Notes under the pieces: model-generated
Seen by the model: only the letters and a program-made list of their open reading frames with translations
Databases searched by the model: none
What the model was told of the DNA's origin: nothing
Source of the DNA: an uncultured bacterium
GTDB lineage: Bacteria; Desulfobacterota_D; UBA1144; Nemesobacterales; UBA2774
Direction of reading: 5' to 3'
NCBI GenBank assembly: GCA_963705505.1
Contig: CAVPJU010000006.1
Span: forward strand, 128,001-192,000
DNA: 64,000 nucleotides
Shown: piece after piece, positions 54,360-64,000 of the stretch
Position numbering within the stretch: position 1 is the first letter of the stretch
Layout: each line of letters begins with the position of its first letter
Translations under genes and position numbers: made by a program

Positions 54360-55121
54360 TCACTGAATCGTGGAGTTGTCCAGGTTTCCCGAGGCAAAAC
54401 TCCTAATATCGTCCCACTTCTGCAAAAAAGCCTTAAGCGATTCGTTGGCTTGACGGAAATTTCCCTTATCTAATAAACCGAGGAACTTCCACGCCTCTTC
54501 CACGGAGCGCTCACGTTCCAGGCTGTAGGGATTGATAACGGAGCAAAGCTCGCCGTAGTTTAGAACGATGAATCCGCTGGGATCGAAACCTGAAAGCCAT
54601 GCTTTAAGATCGGCCAGCCCTTTCGATAAATTGTCCTCGATATAAATATAGGCGGAATTATCCAGGTCTCCGGGGCGTCCTTTTACGACATCAGCAAGTA
54701 TGCCCTCGGCTTCGCTTAATCTGTCGAGGGCCGTGTGTACTCTTGTATCGTAATGAAGGGCGTTAAACCCCCAGTGGGTATAGAGGGTTTGCCTATCTTC
54801 CTCGCTGAAAAGTAAAAACCATTCGACCGGGATGAAATTCTCGCAAAAAAACAAGTTCGCCTTAGACTGGAACGGAGCTACATAGTATTTACCATCTTCA
54901 TCCTTCGTAAAAAAGCAGTGCTCTATCTCTTCCGCAGCGATTCCAAGGTTATTGGACAGGGCGTTTACGAAAGATTCGTATTCATTTCCGAACCAGACAC
55001 CGAACGGAGAGGTCGGACCGCCCCAATATAGTTCATAAAATTGAACATACTCGGACCAGTAATAGCTTTTATCCGTCATACTGTTCAGAGGTTCATACAA
55101 AACCAGAGTACTCTTGGCCAT
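54360..55121 (-). CDS. hypothetical protein
   Basis: 253-aa ORF with globular composition, filling the gap between neighbours. Confidence 0.75.
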   Translation of the reverse strand: MAKSTLVLYEPLNSMTDKSYYWSEYVQFYELYWGGPTSPFGVWFGNEYESFVNALSNNLGIAAEEIEHCFFTKDEDGKYYVAPFQSKANLFFCENFIPVEWFLLFSEEDRQTLYTHWGFNALHYDTRVHTALDRLSEAEGILADVVKGRPGDLDNSAYIYIEDNLSKGLADLKAWLSGFDPSGFIVLNYGELCSVINPYSLERERSVEEAWKFLGLLDKGNFRQANESLKAFLQKWDDIRSFASGNLDNSTIQ

Positions 55122-55326
55122 CAGAAATTAATAAACCAAAACCCATCTAAAATCAACGAAGCATCAAAATATAAAACTATAAGTTAATACGTTATTTGTT
55201 GACGGATTACATAAAAGCTTTTTATCCCCGCATACGATAAGCCCCGGGGAAGGCACTGCGTATATGACCGAAAGTCCATCAAAAAACGGATTGACAAAGG
55301 GTTCATATCCTGCTTAATATGATGGT

Positions 55327-56043
55327 ATGGCAGAAATTTCACTGGAAGAAATGATAAGAGAGGCAAAAAAAAGGAAGATAGACCTCGGAACCGACCCGGA
55401 AAAAACAATTAAAATCTGCTCTAGACTCGGTCTCATACCCAAACCGAAGAGAAAGAAATTTACAGTGGGCGGGGAAACAAAGACACATCTTGTATTTCCC
55501 GATGCGACTCTGGAGAAGCTCGCGCACATTAAGGCTCTGAAATCGGAAGGACTTACACTCGAAGAGATCAGAGACAGTTTTGCGCTCGAATATGTCCAGG
55601 GCGCATTAAAGGACCTGATCAACAACGCCGACGACGAGAAGGTAAAAGAGCTCGCCAATATTATCAGCAGGGAGAAAGAGCTCGAATCGATCGTAGAGGC
55701 ACCGCTCGTCTATCTGATAGAAGGAATGTCCCCGGAAGAAGCTAAAAAACTGCTCACATTATTCTTCGGTGTCGGGTATTATGCCCTCCTCGAAGCCCAG
55801 AAGTCGATCGAGGAGTTCAAGTTCAACGATGCCAGGAAGTCCCTGTTTAAAGCGATCTTCTATAACTCTATCGCCATATTGAGACTCGCGAGGACTACAG
55901 GCGACACAAAGCTCGAAGAAACCGCTTTCGAGCTGTATGAAAAGACCGTGATCGAGCCCATCGGGAGGGCGAGCGAACGAGTCAGGAAAGAATTCATCAA
56001 TTCCTTCGAAAAATATCTAAAAGACAAAGGCTTAACGAACTAG
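55327..56043 (+). CDS. MerR-like HTH protein with helical C-terminus
   Basis: GLIPKP..R, IKALKSEGLTLEEI; TTGACA-18-TAATAT upstream. Confidence 0.7.
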   Translation: MAEISLEEMIREAKKRKIDLGTDPEKTIKICSRLGLIPKPKRKKFTVGGETKTHLVFPDATLEKLAHIKALKSEGLTLEEIRDSFALEYVQGALKDLINNADDEKVKELANIISREKELESIVEAPLVYLIEGMSPEEAKKLLTLFFGVGYYALLEAQKSIEEFKFNDARKSLFKAIFYNSIAILRLARTTGDTKLEETAFELYEKTVIEPIGRASERVRKEFINSFEKYLKDKGLTN

Positions 56044-56075
56044 AAAGTTTTTGTCAGCTTAAAGGCATTATTAAT

Positions 56076-56330
56076 TTATCGGATCCTTTCCGAAATGTAA
56101 TCCGAAATACTCTCAATAGTCTCGAAAAAATCCGGGGTTATCTCGCTTTCGTCGAGCTTCACCCCGAACTCCTCTTCAAGCGCGACCAGAAATTCGAGCC
56201 TGGCAACGGAATCGATACCGACGCCGTACTCGATTAAAGGAAAATCGTCCGCTATCCCGCCGGGGTTCATTTCTTTGAGAACATTCTCGGCAAGGACTCT
56301 CCTTACCCTCTCTCTCGTATCCTCACTCAT
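56076..56330 (-). CDS. acyl carrier protein
   Basis: GIDSV (Ppant Ser), LEEEFGV; acidic, 84 aa. Confidence 0.92.
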   Translation of the reverse strand: MSEDTRERVRRVLAENVLKEMNPGGIADDFPLIEYGVGIDSVARLEFLVALEEEFGVKLDESEITPDFFETIESISDYISERIR

Positions 56331-56351
56331 TGGCCCGTCCCAGATTTGTTA

Positions 56352-57830
56352 TCATTTTAATTGCTCCCTTAGTATTTTACCTGTAGGGCTTCTCGGAAGC
56401 TCATGGCGAAACTCAATAATCTGAGGAATCTTATATTCAGTAATCCTGTCCCTGCAATATTCCAACACCTCCCTTGCCTCGATAGGGCGTCCTGCAACGA
56501 TCACGGCTTTCACGCGCTCATTCCCTGATCTGTCTTTTATGCCCAGCACCGCGGCCTCGGTTATATCCGGATGCTGGGAGAGGAGATTTTCCACCTCAGT
56601 CGGGTCGACCTTAAATCCCCCTACATTGATAAGAAACTTCCTTCGCCCCGTGATGTATATGTACCCCTCTTCGTCTATCCTCCCCAAATCCCCCGTGAAG
56701 TAGTAGCCGTTTCTGAATACCCTCGCTGTTTCTTCCGGGAGTCCGTAATAACCCGTCGTCATGGACGGGCTTCTGACGGCGATCTCGCCAAGCTCCCCGG
56801 CGGCGGCTTCTTTGCCGTCCTCATCAAAAACTTTGACTATGACGTTTTTGACCGGCCTTCCGACAGAATTAAACCGTTCCCCGATTTCATCCTCATCGCA
56901 GAGGTTAATCGATATGACTCCGGTCTCGGTCGAGCCGTAAAGCTGTCTCGGGTAAATGGAGAATTTCTCATGGAACCTGTAAAAGGTGCGCTCCTCCAGA
57001 GGGGCGCCTGCGGAAATAACCAATTTGAGTGACGACAGATCTATCGGTGAGGCCAAGTACGTTTTCGACAGTACGTCGAGCATAACGGGGACCGATGGGA
57101 AGGCTGTTATGGACTCCTTCACGAGGATATCGAGGACCCTGTTCCTGTTAAAATCGCCTGAAACGACCACGGCAGCCCCTGCTTTCACCGCGCTTATAAA
57201 GTTCCCGAAGCCGTAGGTGTGAGAAATGGGAACCGTGAAGAGTACCCTGTCCTTATGTGTCCAGCCCACGGTTTCCGTATGGTTGTCTGCGAGGGCCGAG
57301 AGGTTATAGTGGGTCCTGGCCACCCTTTTAGGTTTTCCGGTCGAGCCTGTTGAATAGAGATATATAGCCTCATCTTCCGGTCTGACATTAGAGTCGAGGG
57401 GCTGCCCGGAGTATTCTCCGGGAAATTTCCAGGAGGCTTTGTCCCCCTTTATCGAGACGGCTTCTATCCCTCTGCCGGATGAGGCTTCCGCAGCCGTGTT
57501 TATCAAATCGTCCCCGGTCACAAGAAGTCTCGCGCCCGAATGCTCCAGATAAAAACCGACCTCGCCGGTCTTAAACGAGCTGTTGATAGGGACGGACACC
57601 GCCCCGGACAACGACACTCCGAAAACCGCCGTCACGAACTCGATAGAGTTGGGAAGGAATATCGCGACCCTGTCACCCTTCACAACTCCGCGGGAGGAAA
57701 GAAGGGACGCGAACGCCCGGGCACTCCGGACAAGGTCTTCATACGTGACGCTTATGCCGTCTTCGATAACGGCAGTGCGGGAGGAGAATTTCTCGGCCGC
57801 AGATAAAAAGAGTCCTGATAGCGTATTCAT
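56352..57830 (-). CDS. ANL-family adenylating enzyme (acyl-CoA/acyl-ACP ligase)
   Basis: YSTGSTGKPK, YGSTE, TGDLG, LPRSPTGK. Confidence 0.92.
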   Translation of the reverse strand: MNTLSGLFLSAAEKFSSRTAVIEDGISVTYEDLVRSARAFASLLSSRGVVKGDRVAIFLPNSIEFVTAVFGVSLSGAVSVPINSSFKTGEVGFYLEHSGARLLVTGDDLINTAAEASSGRGIEAVSIKGDKASWKFPGEYSGQPLDSNVRPEDEAIYLYSTGSTGKPKRVARTHYNLSALADNHTETVGWTHKDRVLFTVPISHTYGFGNFISAVKAGAAVVVSGDFNRNRVLDILVKESITAFPSVPVMLDVLSKTYLASPIDLSSLKLVISAGAPLEERTFYRFHEKFSIYPRQLYGSTETGVISINLCDEDEIGERFNSVGRPVKNVIVKVFDEDGKEAAAGELGEIAVRSPSMTTGYYGLPEETARVFRNGYYFTGDLGRIDEEGYIYITGRRKFLINVGGFKVDPTEVENLLSQHPDITEAAVLGIKDRSGNERVKAVIVAGRPIEAREVLEYCRDRITEYKIPQIIEFRHELPRSPTGKILREQLK

Positions 57831-57846
57831 GCCGGGCAAATTCTCC

Positions 57847-58890
57847 CTATGGATATATTCCCGAACCGCCGAGCGATTCCGTTTCCTCAAAACCGAACAT
57901 TATATTCATATTCTGCACAGCCTGCCCCGACGCCCCTTTGACGAGGTTGTCCAGAGCGACGACCGTAATCAATCTATCCGACAGCAAGGTGAAACCCAGT
58001 CCACAAACATTCGAATACCTTACGTCTTTAATGCCGGGGAATTCATCGGATGCGTATACCCTGACAAAGGGCTCGTTCCCATAATATTTCTTGTAGAGCG
58101 CGGAAATAAACTCAGAAGTACGCATTTCTTTAAGCCGGGAATAAATCGTCGTCAATATGCCACGGTTAACGGAAACCGTGTGGGGCATGAAGCTTATGCC
58201 GACATCCGTCCCGGAAAAAGGTGAAAGCACTTCTTCCATCTCCCGCCCCTGATTATTCGAGGCGTTTAAATTAATCCTCACGTTTTCATTCGATTCGGGA
58301 AAATGGTGCTCGAGGGTCGGAGCGCGTCCGCCTCCTGACTCGCCTCCCTTGGCATCGGCGACAATAGAGCCCGCGTCTATGAGCCTCTCCGATAGAAGCG
58401 GGTACAACCCCAGTATGACCCCTGTCGCATAGCATCCTGGGTTCGCAACCAGTCTTGAATTACTTATATCCCTTCTGAAGATCTCTGGAATGCCATACAC
58501 GGCATCACTAATGTAATTTTTATATCTATGACCGGTATTGAAAAGCTTTTCGTACACATCGGGATTTTTAAACCTGAAATCCGCGCTGAAATCTATGACC
58601 CGGACCCCGGCGTCGAGAAGCCTGGCCGTAAAATGCATCGAAGAGCCGTGAGGAAGGCAGGAAAAGGCCACATCCACCTTACCCAGGTCTTTCAGTCCCG
58701 ATACGCTTCTGCATTCCAGATCCGAAAATCCCCTTAGATGGGGGAAGACTTCGTATATTTTCCTTCCTGAGAACTTCTCAGAAGTAAGCCATTCTATGTT
58801 TACGCCGGGATGGTTGACCAACAGCCTGAGCAGCTCCGCCCCTGTATAACCTGTGGCTCCAAGAATCCCAGCTTTAATCTTTACGCCCAT
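57847..58890 (-). CDS. argC: ArgC-family reductase with divergent substrate-site motifs
   Basis: GATGYTG, ANPGCY, DNLVKGASGQAVQNMN present. SGxSGAG reads GGESGGG and HRHxPE reads NNQGRE. Confidence 0.8.
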   Translation of the reverse strand: MGVKIKAGILGATGYTGAELLRLLVNHPGVNIEWLTSEKFSGRKIYEVFPHLRGFSDLECRSVSGLKDLGKVDVAFSCLPHGSSMHFTARLLDAGVRVIDFSADFRFKNPDVYEKLFNTGHRYKNYISDAVYGIPEIFRRDISNSRLVANPGCYATGVILGLYPLLSERLIDAGSIVADAKGGESGGGRAPTLEHHFPESNENVRINLNASNNQGREMEEVLSPFSGTDVGISFMPHTVSVNRGILTTIYSRLKEMRTSEFISALYKKYYGNEPFVRVYASDEFPGIKDVRYSNVCGLGFTLLSDRLITVVALDNLVKGASGQAVQNMNIMFGFEETESLGGSGIYP

Positions 58891-59084
58891 GAGACCCGCT
58901 TATTTTTTACTCTATATCCGGCAAAGGAATATTGTAATGAAAAAATACACCTCAAAACAGCTATTATTTCGATTCGACAAACAAACTCTATGTAAAAATC
59001 CAATATTCTCAGTTAATATAGGATAAGCTGTATGTTTTTGCGGATGATTTTAACCATAAACCAACTACTATGGAGGATAGGATC

Positions 59085-59955
59085 ATGGTTAAATTACTGA
59101 ATAAAAATCTTTTCCTTTTGATATTGCTTACTTTTGGTTTCTTTCATGTCGTCCAGTATGTGGAGCTGCGGCGGTGGGGGCGGGGGAGGCGGAGACAACA
59201 AAACAAGGATCAACGGTACGGTTCAACAGGTAATCAGCGGGCCGGTTTCGGACATAAAGGTCACTATATTTGAGAACAACAACAAGCGCGCTTCAACCAA
59301 AACAAACCAATTCGGGGAGTTTTCTCTGGGGTTCAAGCCTAATGCCGATACTGTTGAGATCGAGTTCAAGGGCTCCAATTATACCCTCTCGAGGTTTATA
59401 TCCGTCACGCGCGACAGTGATGTCGAATTCGATGTCACGCTGCAAATCGATAGCAGCAATATCATAGTTAACACCTGGACAGTCTCCCAGAACCCCGTAC
59501 ACGTAAACAACGATGAATTAATTTTCAACGACCTCGAAGCCGATTTTAATATCGACGGCAACGGGAACGATTGTATCAGGGCGCAAGGGGACGGCCGGGT
59601 GGAAATCACCGCCATGAGTATATCTCTCAGTGACTGCAAAGAGGGTATAAACGCCGAAAACTCCGCGACTGTAATATTCGAGTCTGATGAAGACATAAGG
59701 ATAAGCGCAAAGAAAAACGGTATCAAATCAAACAACAACGCAGTCGTCAGGATTGCGCAGACCGTTACGCCCATCGATAACAATATCTTTATCGCATCCT
59801 TAAATGAAAACGGCATAAGGGCTGCGGGTTCATCAGAGGTCATAATAGATCCTGAGAACACCTGTACGATCAGCGGGGGGACAAGTAAACCCGCAATAAA
59901 CCAGAGCGGGGCGGCGACAGTCGACCCGGACGGATGTACCCTTAGTAACGGGTGA
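59085..59955 (+). pseudogene. lipoprotein with beta-helix-like C-terminus; +1 frameshift in the signal peptide (probably a sequencing error)
   Basis: GGAGGA then ATG 59085. Removing one T from 59132-59135 gives MVKLLNKNLFLLILLTLVSFMSSSMWS-C-G8. Repeated (N/E)GI-x-A motifs. Confidence 0.7.
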
Positions 59956-60002
59956 AGTATTAATCAAGGGAATCAGTCGGGCGGGGGTAATTTGAATGGT
60001 GA

Positions 60003-62705
60003 TTAGTGTGCTTCCGCCCAGTTCTTGCCGGTTCCTATCTCGACTTTTATAGGAACCCTGAGCTTCCAGGCACCCTCCATTCCGTCCTTCACAATCCGCG
60101 ATATCACTTCCAGCTCGTCCTCGGGAACCTCGAATAGGAGCTCGTCGTGGACTTGCAGTATCATGCGGGTCCTGTAATCGGAGGAGAGCTTTTCCTGTAT
60201 CCTGATCATAGCGATATTTATTATATCCGCCGCGGAGCCCTGAATCGGCGTGTTCATGGCGGTACGCTCCCCGAACCCTTTCCTGTTCCTGTCATCCGAG
60301 TTAAGCTCGGGGATAGGGCGTCTCCGTCCCAGGATCGTCTCCGCATAACCCTTACTCCTGGCATCGTCAATCGATTTCTGGATGTATTCCTTAACCTTGC
60401 TATAGCGTTTGAAGTATTCGTCGATGTAGCTTTTGGCGATGGAAACGGAAGTCCCCAGCTGTTTTGCAAGGCCGAAGGCGCTTATACCGTATATGATCCC
60501 GAAGTTGATATTCTTGGACAATCTCCTCATCTCGGGGGTTACGAGGTCCTCGGTGACCCCGAAAATTTCAGAGGCAGTCCTGTTATGAATGTCGCTCCCC
60601 GTCATGAAAGCCTCGACCAGGCTCTCGTCTTCCGAGAAATGTGCGAGGAGCCTGAGCTCTATCTGAGAGTAATCGGCGGAGAGCATGATGTAGCCTTCCT
60701 CGGGTATGAAGGCTTCCCTGATACGCCTCCCCTGAGCGGTCTTTATCGGTATGTTCTGGAGGTTGGGTTCACTGGAGCTGAGCCTCCCGGTCGATGAGCC
60801 CACCGGATTAAAGGAGGTGTGAAGCCTCCCCGTACGGGGATTTATAAGCTTGGGGAGCGCGTCCACGTACGTCGATTTGAGCTTGGAGAGGGTCCTGTGC
60901 TCGAGCACCTTCTCCGGGACTGAATGGAACTTGCTGAGGTCGGTGAGCACCTCGACGTCCGTGGAAGATTCGCCCGTCTTCGTGAGCTTTTTCTGGGGCA
61001 GGCGCAGCGTCTCGAAAAGGACCTGGCGCAGCTGTATGGGGGAATTCAAATTGAACTCGTACCCTACCTCCTCGTAAATCGTCTTTTCTATTTCCTTGAG
61101 TCCGGTATCGAACTCCTTTGACAATTCCTTAAGCCTCGATGCATCGATTTTCATCCCGTTTATCTCGATGCGGGCAAGAACTTCTATGAACTTGAGCTCG
61201 ATGTCCCTGTAAACCCGGATCAGATTTATCTCTTCCAGCTCCCGGGCGAGTTTCTTTGCAAGGAGCATCGCCACATCCGCATCTTCGCAGGAATATACCT
61301 TCGCTGCCTCGAGCTCGACTTCTTCGAAGTTAATTTTGGATTTCCCCGTGCCCGTCACGTCCCTGTATGAAATCATCCTGTGGCCCAGATAGAGCCTGCA
61401 GAGCTCATCCAGGCTATAGCTTATTCTCGATGAATCGAGCATATGCGCGGCGATGATTGTATCGAACGAAATACCCGTGAGCTTTAGCCCGTACATCTCC
61501 AAGAGAACCAGTTCGTATTTAAGATTCTGGCCTATTTTTCTCAAGCCCTTGTCTTCAATGAGGGGCTTTAATTTCTCGAGCACGAAAGGGAGCGCGAGCT
61601 GTCTTGTCGAAGAGTCGGCAAGCGACCTGTGCGCTACAGGGACGTAATAAGCCTCGTGAGGGGCGGGACAGAGCGCTATGCCCACGATTTCCGCGAGCAT
61701 GGGATCGGTCGAGGTCGTCTCCAGATCTATAGAAACCTCTCCTGTTTCCTTTACCCTTTCGATCGCGCGGTGAAGACCCTCTTCCGTCAGGACGAGCGAA
61801 TAGTTATCGTAGGGAACGATACGATTCTCATCCGCTTTTGCGGCGGCGCTCCCGCCATCGCCCAGCTCGCGCAGAAGGTTCTTGAACTCGAGCTCCTCGA
61901 ATAATGCGCGCAGCTTTCCCTTATCGAACCCTTCATATTTGAATTTCTCGAGACCCATATCCACATCGATATCGGTCTTTATCGTGACGAGCTCTTTACT
62001 GAGGAGCGCGTCGCCCTGCTTTTCCCGGATGAGCTTCCTCTGTCTTTCGGCGACGTCGTCCAGATTCATAAGAAGGTTATCGAGCGAGCCGAACGTTTTT
62101 ATAAGACCTATGGCCGTCTTCTCGCCGATACCCTTAACCCCCGGAATGTTGTCGACCTGGTCTCCCATAAGGGCGAATACATCTATCACCCTTTCGGGCG
62201 GCACGCCGTATTTCTCAATGACATCCGGGACAAACGTTTCCTTATTCTTCATCGTATCGAGGAGTTTCACTTTTTCGGACACGAGCTGGCAAAAGTCCTT
62301 ATCCCCGGTGACGAGAACGACATCCATGCCCCGCTTCTCGTAGTCCCTCGCAATAGTGCCCATGATATCGTCGGCTTCGTATCCCTCCATCATGAACTGC
62401 GGGATGTTAAACGCGTCCACGACCTCGAAAATCTTTGAAAACTGCGGAACCAGGTCGTCCGGCGGCGCCCCTCTGTTAGCCTTGTAAAGCGGGTACATCT
62501 CGTTTCGGAAGGTGTCCCCCTTGGCGTCGAAGACAATCCCCAGGTACGCCGGTTTATAATCCTTCAGGAATTTGAAAAGCATGGAAGCGAACCCGTAAAC
62601 CGCGTTCGTCGGAAACCCTTTCGATGTCGTGAGTCCCCTTATCGCATAATACGCACGAAATATATATGAGCTGCCGTCGATGAGATATAAAACAGGTTTT
62701 TCCAT
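60003..62705 (-). CDS. polA: DNA polymerase I
   Basis: LIDGSS, EADD, DLET, DYSQIELR, NFGIIYG, QVHDEL. Confidence 0.98.
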   Translation of the reverse strand: MEKPVLYLIDGSSYIFRAYYAIRGLTTSKGFPTNAVYGFASMLFKFLKDYKPAYLGIVFDAKGDTFRNEMYPLYKANRGAPPDDLVPQFSKIFEVVDAFNIPQFMMEGYEADDIMGTIARDYEKRGMDVVLVTGDKDFCQLVSEKVKLLDTMKNKETFVPDVIEKYGVPPERVIDVFALMGDQVDNIPGVKGIGEKTAIGLIKTFGSLDNLLMNLDDVAERQRKLIREKQGDALLSKELVTIKTDIDVDMGLEKFKYEGFDKGKLRALFEELEFKNLLRELGDGGSAAAKADENRIVPYDNYSLVLTEEGLHRAIERVKETGEVSIDLETTSTDPMLAEIVGIALCPAPHEAYYVPVAHRSLADSSTRQLALPFVLEKLKPLIEDKGLRKIGQNLKYELVLLEMYGLKLTGISFDTIIAAHMLDSSRISYSLDELCRLYLGHRMISYRDVTGTGKSKINFEEVELEAAKVYSCEDADVAMLLAKKLARELEEINLIRVYRDIELKFIEVLARIEINGMKIDASRLKELSKEFDTGLKEIEKTIYEEVGYEFNLNSPIQLRQVLFETLRLPQKKLTKTGESSTDVEVLTDLSKFHSVPEKVLEHRTLSKLKSTYVDALPKLINPRTGRLHTSFNPVGSSTGRLSSSEPNLQNIPIKTAQGRRIREAFIPEEGYIMLSADYSQIELRLLAHFSEDESLVEAFMTGSDIHNRTASEIFGVTEDLVTPEMRRLSKNINFGIIYGISAFGLAKQLGTSVSIAKSYIDEYFKRYSKVKEYIQKSIDDARSKGYAETILGRRRPIPELNSDDRNRKGFGERTAMNTPIQGSAADIINIAMIRIQEKLSSDYRTRMILQVHDELLFEVPEDELEVISRIVKDGMEGAWKLRVPIKVEIGTGKNWAEAH

Positions 62706-63202: not shown

Positions 63203-64000
63203 TCAGATACCGGGGCTGATTATAACTTTTATAGAGTCCCGAGCCTCTTCCACCATGCGGAACCCTTTCAGGGTCTCGGACAAGGGAAGCCTATGAGTTA
63301 CCATATCGAGCACGTTAACCCGTTTAGCCCGTATTAGCTCAAGGGCTATGGCGAGATCGGAAGGGGAAGCCGCATACGAGCTCACGGTCTTTATCCCCGA
63401 CCACCAGAAGTCGTTATAGGGGATCGTAATTGTTGCAGCAGGCCCCGAAGGGGCGAAAAATAATATCGTCCCGCCCGGCTCCGCGAGCTTGAGGGCGCCT
63501 TCGATCGCCGGTTGAGCGCCCGTGCATACGATAACCATATCGGCAAGGCGTCCTTCGTTAAGATTCCGCAAATAGGAAGCTATGTCCTCGCCTGCATGCA
63601 CCGTGTGATCAGCGCCGAAATCAGACGCGGCTTTGAGCCTGAAATCGCTTATATCGGTCGCAATGATACGTCCCGCCCCCTGAGCCCTCGCAAGCTGGAT
63701 GTGGAGGAGCCCCGTTATACCGCTCCCCATCACAAGCACGCAGTCGGTGATCTGAAATCCGGCGAGCCGCTGCCCGCGCACGACGCACCCGAGGGGCTCG
63801 ACAAAAGAGGCCTCGTCGTATGAGACCCCGTCAGGGAGCCTGAGCACGCCCCTGTCCACGTTGATGGCGGGTATTCGTATATATTCCGAAAAACCGCCCG
63901 GATCGAAATGGGTCGTCCTCAAGGTCCTGCACGCGGAATGGTTCCCCCTGAGACAGTAAAAACAGGTGTTGCACGGGACGTGGTGAGTGGCAATGATACG
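63203..64000 (-). CDS. Zn-dependent alcohol/polyol dehydrogenase, 3' part (starts beyond the right edge)
   Basis: CNTCFYC..C read from base 64000, EPLGC, GSGITG. Confidence 0.92.
   Translation of the reverse strand, partial: RIIATHHVPCNTCFYCLRGNHSACRTLRTTHFDPGGFSEYIRIPAINVDRGVLRLPDGVSYDEASFVEPLGCVVRGQRLAGFQITDCVLVMGSGITGLLHIQLARAQGAGRIIATDISDFRLKAASDFGADHTVHAGEDIASYLRNLNEGRLADMVIVCTGAQPAIEGALKLAEPGGTILFFAPSGPAATITIPYNDFWWSGIKTVSSYAASPSDLAIALELIRAKRVNVLDMVTHRLPLSETLKGFRMVEEARDSIKVIISPGI

Follow-up and report, generated by a model that had tools for sequence, protein, structure and literature searches.

A candidate split carboxylic acid reductase in Dadabacteria: an ArgC paralogue encoded with an adenylate-forming ligase and a carrier protein

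What does an ArgC-like enzyme do when its gene is packed together with those of an adenylating enzyme and an acyl carrier protein (ACP)? The question is raised by three genes in the window analysed here, a stretch of 64,000 nucleotides from a Dadabacteria-like genome. The sequence comparisons below suggest that the trio is probably an undescribed split reductase that converts an acid to an aldehyde, and not an arginine gene.

Gene content and layout of the locus

57847-58890, minus strand: ArgC paralogue, 347 aa (PF01118 and PF22698; TIGR01850, 368.2 bits)
57831-57846, minus strand: 16-nt spacer from the paralogue stop (TAG, 57847-57849) to the ligase ATG, opening with GGAG
56352-57830, minus strand: ANL (class I adenylate-forming) ligase, 492 aa (PF00501 and PF13193)
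56331-56351, minus strand: 21-nt spacer from the ligase stop (TGA, 56352-56354) to the ACP ATG
56076-56330, minus strand: stand-alone carrier protein (ACP), 84 aa (PF00550)
55327-56043, plus strand: MerR-like HTH gene, 238 aa, convergent with the ACP gene

By the ORF list and the sequence, the ArgC-like, ligase and ACP genes all lie on the minus strand, co-directional and tightly packed, and the gaps of 16 and 21 nt given in the initial annotation are exact. The open frame of the ligase spans 56352-57890 with an ATG at 57830, and the GGAG in the spacer before it is likely its ribosome-binding site. Around the trio lie the convergent MerR-like gene, an unknown 253-aa gene, a sigma-70 gene, a divergent CarboxypepD_reg-like gene and polA. 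The ORFs and the family calls on these neighbours confirmed that the trio has no arg, PKS or NRPS gene beside it and showed no kinase gene within the operon. A search of 55000-60100 for riboswitches or other RNA elements gave no Rfam match at E values up to 1, and promoter and terminator scans gave counts no higher than those in shuffled sequence. The 20 sequencing runs listed for this lineage were DNA runs, with no RNA run among them.

A second copy beside the canonical argC

Every source that names the paralogue calls it ArgC, because the TIGR01850 cut-off lets its clade pass: it scores well above the threshold of 233.6 bits and matches solved ArgC structures down to an E value of 1e-79 (1VKN). 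One reading is that it is ArgC proper, acting on N-acetyl-glutamyl phosphate. We consider this very improbable, since canonical argC occurs in the same genomes, the catalytic His and its HRH motif are missing, the substrate-channel residues are changed, and linkage to the ligase and ACP is strict. In the genome studied here, the canonical copy scores 450 bits on TIGR01850, retains KSGVSGAGR and an intact HRHMPE, and shares 46% identity with the paralogue. The ArgC-like gene of the trio is therefore a second copy and not the housekeeping argC; the possibility raised at the outset that it might be the only argC in the genome did not hold.

Two bypass roles were also considered and rejected. An ArgB bypass is ruled out by the presence of argB elsewhere in the same genome. 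A proline bypass, with the module supplying glutamate semialdehyde in place of ProA, was rejected because proA scores above cut-off in 112 of 120 genomes of the phylum, this one included.

Remodelling of the active site in a His-to-Gln clade

58840-58860, minus strand: NADPH motif GATGYTG of the paralogue
58573-58587, minus strand: Arg106 in SADFR
58426-58443, minus strand: Cys153 in NPGCYA
58324-58350, minus strand: KGGESGGGR, replacing KSGxSGAGR
58249-58257, minus strand: NNQ, replacing HRH
57931-57951, minus strand: DNLVKGA

The initial annotation described an ArgC homologue that keeps the NADPH motif, the catalytic Cys and DNLVKGA, all of which were located in the sequence, and its position for NNQ is exact. 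The altered KGGESGGG motif is likewise present, but the span first assigned to it (58327-58347) omits the Lys codon. A hidden frameshift at NNQ, already dismissed in that annotation, is excluded because both other frames carry stops there (at aa 203 and 207 in one and at aa 200, 205 and 211 in the other; 16 and 19 stops over the whole gene), and Gln occupies the catalytic-His position in 118 of the 120 best homologues of the paralogue as well.

Residue roles were mapped onto the paralogue through alignment to 8AFU/8AFV. In ArgC, the His of HRH activates the Cys (His219 in the Mtb enzyme), and the His and Arg hold the phosphate and the carbonyl (PMC12041015, PMC10170137; both sources are cited throughout from excerpts). 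According to the same excerpts, S178, G182, A183, Y203 and L233 of DaArgC, which correspond to G182, G186, G187, N207 and T238 in the paralogue, form the N-acetylglutamyl (NAG) side-chain channel (PMC12041015, PMC10170137). The earlier statement that the changed residues line the ArgC substrate site agrees with these assignments of phosphate and carbonyl binding, Cys activation and the NAG channel.

In the alignment, Gln replaces the catalytic His in all 124 sequences of the paralogue group (the Q group), whereas His is present in all 142 canonical ones. The frequency of the first His of HRH falls from 1.00 in canonical sequences to 0.54 in the Q group, and the Arg becomes N, D or S. The channel Tyr (0.99 in canonical sequences) is variable, the channel Leu (0.82) is replaced by T, R or N, and the Pro that follows Cys-Tyr is replaced by A or S. 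Judged from these aligned positions, the NAG side-chain pocket is remodelled in the paralogue clade. A FastTree phylogeny placed 50 Q-group sequences and one with His in a single clade, with SH-like support of 100, apart from the canonical ArgCs of the phylum; the His-less homologues form a clade of their own. In two members of the clade, P0050 (HRH) and P0075 (HNH), His still stands where the others have Gln; P0075 may share its contig with a ligase match, so the module may not depend on Gln.

A loss of this kind could also mark decay, with the paralogue a weakened or dead ArgC descendant kept as a binding, scaffold or regulatory partner, for example a sensor of NADPH or acyl-ACP. Every Q-group member has lost the residue responsible for Cys activation in ArgC and LysY (PMC12041015, in excerpt), and the AF2 model of the paralogue gives the loop 186-206 beside the active site a pLDDT below 50. 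Against this, more than 120 sequences, with identities down to 40%, all keep Cys153, the NADPH motif, the GxGR loop and DNLxKGA, as expected of a working active site; conservation of Cys153, Arg106 and the Gly motif is 1.00 in the Q group too. The clade has, moreover, acquired conserved residues of its own (W34, K39, F40, F55, S77, F87 and A190), which point to a changed function and not to decay. We therefore regard a weakened or dead partner protein as quite improbable.

The ligase and the carrier protein

57324-57356, minus strand: ligase P-loop, YSTGSTGKPKR
57210-57230, minus strand: ligase PISHTYG, of acyl-CoA-ligase type
56376-56396, minus strand: ligase C-terminal PRSPTGK with the catalytic Lys
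56205-56225, minus strand: ACP GVGIDSV with Ser41

The P-loop singled out as atypical in the initial annotation is a real, clade-specific feature, found in 46 of 47 ligase orthologues, with the catalytic Lys kept; no functional meaning has come from it so far. The GxGxDS motif of the ACP, with Ser41, is invariant in all 33 orthologues, and a PPTase gene is present. Assigning a substrate by similarity was tried and abandoned: the best solved relatives of the ligase are a mixture of fatty-acyl, feruloyl, oxalyl, malonyl and NRPS enzymes, and the closest families to the ACP are type II PCPs and AmcB/OlsHI-type ACPs, at scores below their cut-offs. ESM Atlas returned generic names only for the ligase and the MerR-like protein.

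Searches for fused versions of the module gave no ligase-ACP or reductase fusion among the matches listed, and the 120 best relatives of the ligase lack a PP-binding domain. A search for longer proteins gave 8 matches, all canonical-type or unrelated. One apparent fusion, P0276, was rejected: it joins part of a benzoate-CoA ligase to a canonical ArgC that is truncated but keeps HRH, and it is probably a chimera.

Linkage and co-occurrence across the phylum

For the linkage count, 47 loci were fetched, 4 of which stop at a contig edge. In all 43 evaluable loci of the phylum, paralogue, ligase and ACP follow one another in that order and in the same direction. The distant genus g26 shows this order too, in 5 of 5 loci, with 40-44% identity and different flanking genes, and linkage of the trio in g26 was also seen by coordinates in 24 genomes. 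The MerR-like gene follows the ACP gene in 43/43 evaluable loci of families f1-f7 and in none of the five g26 loci examined; it may be a regulator or merely a syntenic neighbour. A search of genome contigs with general ArgC motifs yielded one paralogue locus and 79 canonical argC loci from other phyla, which served as controls. An ACP gene was found at none of these 79 and an ANL gene at 2, in both cases 5.6-7 kb away.

The ligase orthologue is present in 84 of 120 genomes of the phylum, together with the paralogue. The 36 genomes that lack it comprise 35 with a single, canonical-level ArgC match and one, G003, in which the paralogue lies at a contig end. Ligase and paralogue are thus present together and lost together, and the HRH-less homologues co-occur with ligase and ACP in every evaluable locus. 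Since the genomes examined all come from one phylum, part of this synteny could be inherited and not selected. No conserved gene for an enzyme that would consume an aldehyde lies next to the operon across the loci compared. The computational checks suggested with the initial annotation (a second argC, a separate clade, linkage) all favoured its reading of a split carboxylic acid reductase, which they support in part.

A proposed split carboxylic acid reductase

We propose that the trio forms one operon for a split carboxylate reductase, in which the ligase would charge the ACP with a non-amino acid and the paralogue would reduce the resulting thioester to an aldehyde; from the sequence features we give this an even chance of being right. 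The ANL ligase would adenylate a carboxylic acid, probably not an alpha-amino acid, and move it to the phosphopantetheine thiol on Ser41 of the dedicated ACP. Cys153 of the paralogue would then take the acyl group from acyl-S-ACP by transthioesterification and not by attack on an acyl phosphate, and reduction of the enzyme thioester with NADPH would release the free aldehyde and holo-ACP.

Because HRH in ArgC binds the phosphate and the carbonyl and activates the Cys, its loss fits a substrate without a phosphate leaving group (PMC12041015, PMC10170137, excerpts), and the altered side-chain channel is consistent with an acyl group that is not N-acetylglutamyl. There is precedent in the ASD family, where an archaeal malonyl-CoA reductase reduces CoA thioesters through its Cys (PMC12041015, in excerpt). 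Since that enzyme keeps its activating His, a thioester substrate alone does not explain the loss of the His (PMC12041015, same excerpt), and a Cys enzyme without it could be slow or inactive.

Linkage and joint loss show that the three proteins are coupled but not which reaction couples them. The paralogue could instead work with the ligase and ACP in other chemistry, reducing an acyl-adenylate or acyl-phosphate that the module itself makes, acting on an ACP-tethered intermediate at a distal group, or oxidizing an aldehyde to acyl-S-ACP. Arg106, which probably binds the phosphate in ArgC, is invariant, and this would be compatible with a phosphorylated substrate as well. However, the paralogue has lost the HRH residues with which ArgC holds phosphate and carbonyl (PMC10170137, PMC12041015, excerpts), the operon holds no kinase gene, and the ATP-using ligase would be superfluous if acyl-ACP were made oxidatively. 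We judge such chemistry rather unlikely.

A fuller form of the reductase proposal, to which we lend slightly less than even confidence, is that the paralogue is an ArgC-derived, His-less Cys acyl-S-ACP reductase, the first GAPDH-superfamily reductase to act on a phosphopantetheinyl carrier. With its ligase and ACP it would make up a split carboxylate reductase that belongs to the primary metabolism of Dadabacteria and is passed on by vertical descent, and the aldehyde would feed a lipid, cofactor or amine pathway.

Implications

ArgC labels on the paralogue clade inflate arginine-pathway calls in Dadabacteria genomes. Known solutions for converting a carboxylate to an aldehyde on a carrier protein are the R domains of CAR and Lys2 and the LuxC/AAR-type enzymes; if the proposal is true, the trio would be a third evolutionary route. 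It would also mean that an enzyme of amino acid biosynthesis was rebuilt by exchanging an acyl-phosphate for an acyl-thioester substrate, and would offer a natural experiment on dispensing with the Cys-His pair of ArgC. For biocatalysis, a small, soluble acid reductase of three proteins could be of interest.

Comparison with known systems

A literature search returned nothing on an ArgC-like enzyme paired with a carrier protein, and the closest systems each share part of the proposed arrangement. Canonical ArgC has the same fold and length, and its NADPH motif, catalytic Cys, SADFR Arg and DNLxKGA are kept in the paralogue. Unlike canonical ArgC, the paralogue is a second copy, never lies beside arg genes and always beside the ligase and ACP in evaluable loci, has Gln for the catalytic His with HRH lost, and is changed at the channel Tyr, Leu, Ala and Ser positions.

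LysY of Thermus (PDB 5EIO), which the paralogue matches at 5e-46, is likewise an ArgC homologue, with a substrate tethered to the small acidic carrier LysW. That tether is an amide at the amino group, however, and the acyl group remains an acyl phosphate (PMC12041015, in excerpt). LysY also keeps its activating His209 and a small residue after the Cys, as excerpted from PMC12041015, whereas in the paralogue the His is replaced by Gln and the Cys is followed by Tyr (Tyr or Phe throughout the clade). Its neighbours are the ligase and a phosphopantetheine-type PF00550 ACP, not LysW, LysX or LysZ.

The archaeal malonyl-CoA/succinyl-CoA reductase (ASD-like; 4DPK/4DPL) is a Cys enzyme of the semialdehyde dehydrogenase fold that converts a pantetheine thioester to a semialdehyde (PMC12041015, in excerpt). 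The paralogue matches 4DPK only weakly (2e-8), over the N-terminal domain. That enzyme uses CoA in place of a carrier protein and has the activating His that the paralogue lacks (PMC12041015, in excerpt).

In its proposed logic, the trio resembles CAR and the fungal alpha-aminoadipate reductase Lys2, which proceed from adenylation through a phosphopantetheine thioester to NADPH-dependent release as an aldehyde (PMC12041015, in excerpt). Adenylation, carrier and reductase functions reside there in a single polypeptide and here in three separate ORFs. The C-terminal R domain of CAR and Lys2 has no catalytic Cys and reduces the thioester directly (PMC12041015, as excerpted), whereas the reductase of the trio belongs to the GAPDH superfamily and is a Cys enzyme of the ArgC type (PF01118/PF22698).

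Gene organization and annotation

The ArgC-like gene lies at the head of a co-directional trio on the minus strand, with an ANL ligase and an acyl carrier protein (ACP) following it.

57847-58890, minus strand: ArgC-like gene, 347 aa (PF01118 and PF22698)
ATG at 57830 to stop TGA at 56352-56354, minus strand: ANL ligase, 492 aa (PF00501 and PF13193)
56076-56330, minus strand: carrier protein (ACP), 84 aa (PF00550)
55327-56043, plus strand: MerR-like gene, 238 aa, downstream of and convergent to the ACP
54360-55121, minus strand: uncharacterized protein gene, 253 aa, without a Pfam or NCBIfam match

The stop codon of the ArgC-like gene (TAG, 57847-57849) is followed by a 16 nt spacer, GGAGAATTTGCCCGGC, and then the ligase ATG at 57830; in an ORF scan the ligase reading frame opens earlier, at a TTG at 57890. 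A spacer of 21 nt separates the ligase from the ACP, whose ATG is at 56330. Upstream of the ArgC-like gene are a divergent CarboxypepD_reg-like gene and then polA. The initial annotation proposed a remodelled ArgC acting with an adenylating enzyme and an ACP, and the motifs it cited are all present, essentially where it placed them. It was also right that no frameshift hides at the NNQ segment, where both alternative frames are closed, and that the neighbors of the trio include no arg, PKS, or NRPS gene. No Rfam elements were found in 55000-60100, and promoter and terminator matches at the locus were no more frequent than in shuffled sequence.

The NCBIfam equivalog model for ArgC, TIGR01850, has a cut-off (233.6 bits) that lets the His-less clade described below pass, the window member scoring 368 bits. 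Every source-named protein among its 120 best homologs (51-93% identity, drawn from 5.8 billion proteins) is called ArgC. In this lineage the His-less clade is systematically misannotated by this label.

A canonical ArgC in the same genome

The genome (2.88 Mb, 10 contigs) encodes one further protein that matches TIGR01850, at 450 bits, on contig 6 (C6:610114-611139), the contig whose positions 128001-192000 make up the window; it is the second canonical argC for which the initial annotation had suggested a search. This copy carries KSGVSGAGR and HRHMPE, adjoins the gene gap and a cysteine desulfurase gene, and is 46% identical to the window protein. Since argB (264 bits) and proA are present as well, the ordinary arginine and proline routes do not need the window gene. 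The asd gene is on contig 1.

Residues and phylogeny of the Gln group

Gln occupies the position of the second His of HRHxPE in 118 of the 120 best homologs, the two with His being the database proteins P0050 and P0075. The Gln group is small: when 1.84 billion cluster representatives were searched with a profile, the best 150 comprised 10 with Gln and 140 with His. FastTree analysis of 126 rows placed 50 Gln rows and P0050 in one clade with SH-like support of 100, while the phylum's canonical ArgCs formed their own clade of 7 rows. Aligned to the ArgC family, as the initial annotation had proposed, the His-less homologs form a clade of their own.

Residues at selected columns in 124 Gln sequences versus 142 His (canonical) sequences, in window protein numbering
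Position 214: Gln group Q 1.00; canonical H 1.00
Position 212: Gln group H 0.54; canonical H 1.00
Position 213: Gln group N/D/S; canonical R 0.80
Position 207: Gln group variable; canonical Y 0.99
Position 238: Gln group T/R/N; canonical L 0.82
Position 155: Gln group A/S; canonical P 0.75

In the same comparison W34, K39, F40, F55, S77, F87, and A190 are conserved at 0.90-1.00 in the Gln group only. Both groups share an invariant Cys153, Arg106 (in SADFR), GxGR loop, and Gly-rich NADPH motif.

According to a 2025 review (PMC12041015), the thioester of M. tuberculosis ArgC is formed by Cys158, activated by His219 (His209 in LysY), and the substrate phosphate is bound by Arg114, His217, and His219. 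The N-acetylglutamyl side-chain channel of DaArgC is described in PMC10170137 as S178, G182, A183, Y203, and L233. Residue-by-residue alignment of the window protein to 8AFU/8AFV puts G182, G186, G187, N207, and T238 at the channel positions and N212-N213-Q214 at the HRH positions. By this mapping, the changed parts are those recognizing the phosphate leaving group and the N-acetylglutamyl side chain. The parts serving hydride transfer and covalent catalysis are retained, and from the conserved SADFR motif we infer that Arg106 is the counterpart of Arg114 in M. tuberculosis.

Linkage of the paralog to the ligase and ACP

A search of 120 genomes of the phylum for the paralog at at least 50% identity found it in about 45, in addition to a canonical copy of about 44-48%. 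We fetched 6 kb on each side of 47 such matches and mapped the window proteins onto them. Four loci (L136, L139, L156, and L160) meet a contig edge directly after the paralog; the remaining 43 all have paralog, ligase, and ACP in this order, co-directional, and then the convergent MerR-like gene, with the ligase of one (L115, genome G076) in two pieces. The outer flanks vary among loci, and include polA with the CarboxypepD_reg-like gene, the 253-aa gene with a sigma gene, trpF-trpB-trpA with a DHH phosphoesterase, a Zn alcohol dehydrogenase, and genes given the candidate names citramalate-synthase-like and aspartate-kinase-like from their first residues alone. The distant genus g26, with mostly closed genomes of 1.5-2.4 Mb, has a second ArgC-like gene, 40-44% identical, whose product keeps the Gln and has a loop that has drifted further (KSSFSTSGR). 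The ligase and ACP follow it in 5/5 examined loci, without the MerR-like gene, and in 24 g26 genomes the coordinates put no more than about 100 bp between the ligase and one ArgC-like match. As a control, 79 canonical argC loci of other phyla had an ANL gene in 2, at 5.6-7 kb, and an ACP match in none. The co-occurrence of His-less homologs with ligase and ACP, raised by the initial annotation as a question, is therefore borne out in 43/43 loci and in g26.

At a threshold of E up to 1e-90, 84 of the 120 genomes have a ligase orthologue. The 36 without one comprise all of family f6 (6), all of family f9 (19, about 1 Mb), and G019, G020, G022, G032, G034, G042, G047, G080, G087, G089, and G003. 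One ArgC-like match, at the canonical level, is found in 35 of them; G003 has the paralog at a contig end. Two or three ArgC-like matches are present in every ligase-positive genome but G010 and G018, each of which has the paralog (L132 and L159) as its sole match. By this pattern of presence and absence, ligase and paralog are gained or lost together. It looks like several separate losses (g3, g4, f4, f6, g25, and f9), given here without a statistic since related genomes are not independent. In G093 (L172, G093:C14:54075-67394) both paralog and ligase contain in-frame stops, which we read as assembly error because the same contig also has polA, the MerR-like gene, and the 253-aa gene in two alignment pieces each. 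Assembly frameshifts are a likelier explanation than decay both for these stops and for the split ligase of G076. Among the 120 best ligase relatives, 33 agree with an ArgC-paralog match in the length of the longest contig, an indirect comparison made by eye. No ligase orthologue at 1e-105 was found in 401 sampled genomes of the Desulfuromusa-MAG phylum, with three candidates scored per genome.

Several neighboring genes were recorded alongside. Across the phylum the MerR-like protein (57-94% identity) is more strongly conserved than the adjoining enzymes; the 253-aa protein is 43-86% identical. In genus g16 (L134:7111-8331 and L137:1219-2418) the paralog is immediately preceded, in the same direction, by a zinc-type alcohol dehydrogenase (PF08240 and PF00107). 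It would suit an aldehyde-to-alcohol step, but its place next to the paralog is conserved only in these two genomes of one genus; its identity to the ADH-like gene at window 63203-64000 is just 29%. The same position is taken in family f2 and genus g26 by a phosphoesterase of the DHH family, about 440 aa long (L131:7229-8554, L144:7038-8363, L161:7077-8411, L164:4575-5891, and L166:7158-8474), which is preceded by genes with the candidate names trpA- and trpB-like, and trpF-like in L131, L144, and L164, from their first residues.

Ligase and carrier protein

The ligase retains the C-terminal catalytic Lys, and its P-loop, which the initial annotation called atypical, proves to be a conserved mark of the clade (STGSTGxPK[R/C] in 46/47 orthologues). 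Its PxSHTYG motif is, we presume, of the acyl/aryl-CoA-ligase type; amino-acid-activating domains carry FDxS instead, so a non-amino acid is favored as substrate. The top NCBIfam model is a long-chain-fatty-acid-CoA-ligase subfamily, under its cut-off, and the solved relatives (FadD13, FadD5, feruloyl-, oxalyl-, and malonyl-CoA synthetases, and one NRPS A domain) are too varied to point to a particular acid. In the ACP, GxGxDS with Ser41 is invariant (33/33 orthologues), and the median net charge among orthologues is -9. Among solved proteins the ACP is closest to type II peptidyl/aminoacyl carrier proteins, and its top NCBIfam models, AmcB and OlsHI ACP, score far under their cut-offs. The genome contains a PPTase-family gene and three PP-binding domains in total.

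One of these three domains belongs to an 876-aa protein (L176:2652-5282; G000:C10:641651-644281) that runs from an AMP-binding through a PP-binding to a PlsC-type acyltransferase domain; it is a possible self-contained lipid acyltransferase that activates its own acid. Locus L174 (G008:C24:10898-24370) encodes a second ligase paralog, 41% identical. A weak ACP-like match lies upstream of it and an ArgC-like gene is absent, so that this looks like another ligase/ACP pair of the same phylum. In the 784-aa database protein P0276, on a 3.7-kb contig, an N-terminal part resembling benzoate-CoA ligase is fused to a canonical ArgC that is truncated at its N-terminus and has an intact HRH; this is probably a chimera or a miscall, unrelated to the module.

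Proposed mechanism

In the proposed mechanism, the ligase would use ATP to convert an acid to acyl-AMP and then to acyl-S-ACP, the acyl group would move from the ACP to Cys153 of the paralog, and NADPH would reduce the enzyme thioester, with aldehyde and holo-ACP leaving. The AF2 model places Cys153 at the N-terminus of helix 153-167, whose dipole could lower the Cys pKa without the His, and Gln214 could form a hydrogen bond with the thioester carbonyl. Reduction of CoA thioesters by an ASD-fold enzyme is described in PMC12041015, but that enzyme retains its His, which is a real weakness of this argument. Further caveats are that Arg106 is invariant and that two members of the clade retain His.

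Comparison with known systems

Literature searches turned up no description of an ArgC-like/ligase/ACP module. By score the paralog falls inside the ArgC fold family, but it lacks the catalytic His and HRH, has altered channel residues, and lies outside an arginine pathway context. It differs from LysY in carrier type, His state, and the residue following the Cys. The module logic of adenylation, thiolation, and reduction would, by analogy, resemble that of CAR and Lys2; with three proteins and a reductase drawn from a different family, however, the module is not a member of that group.
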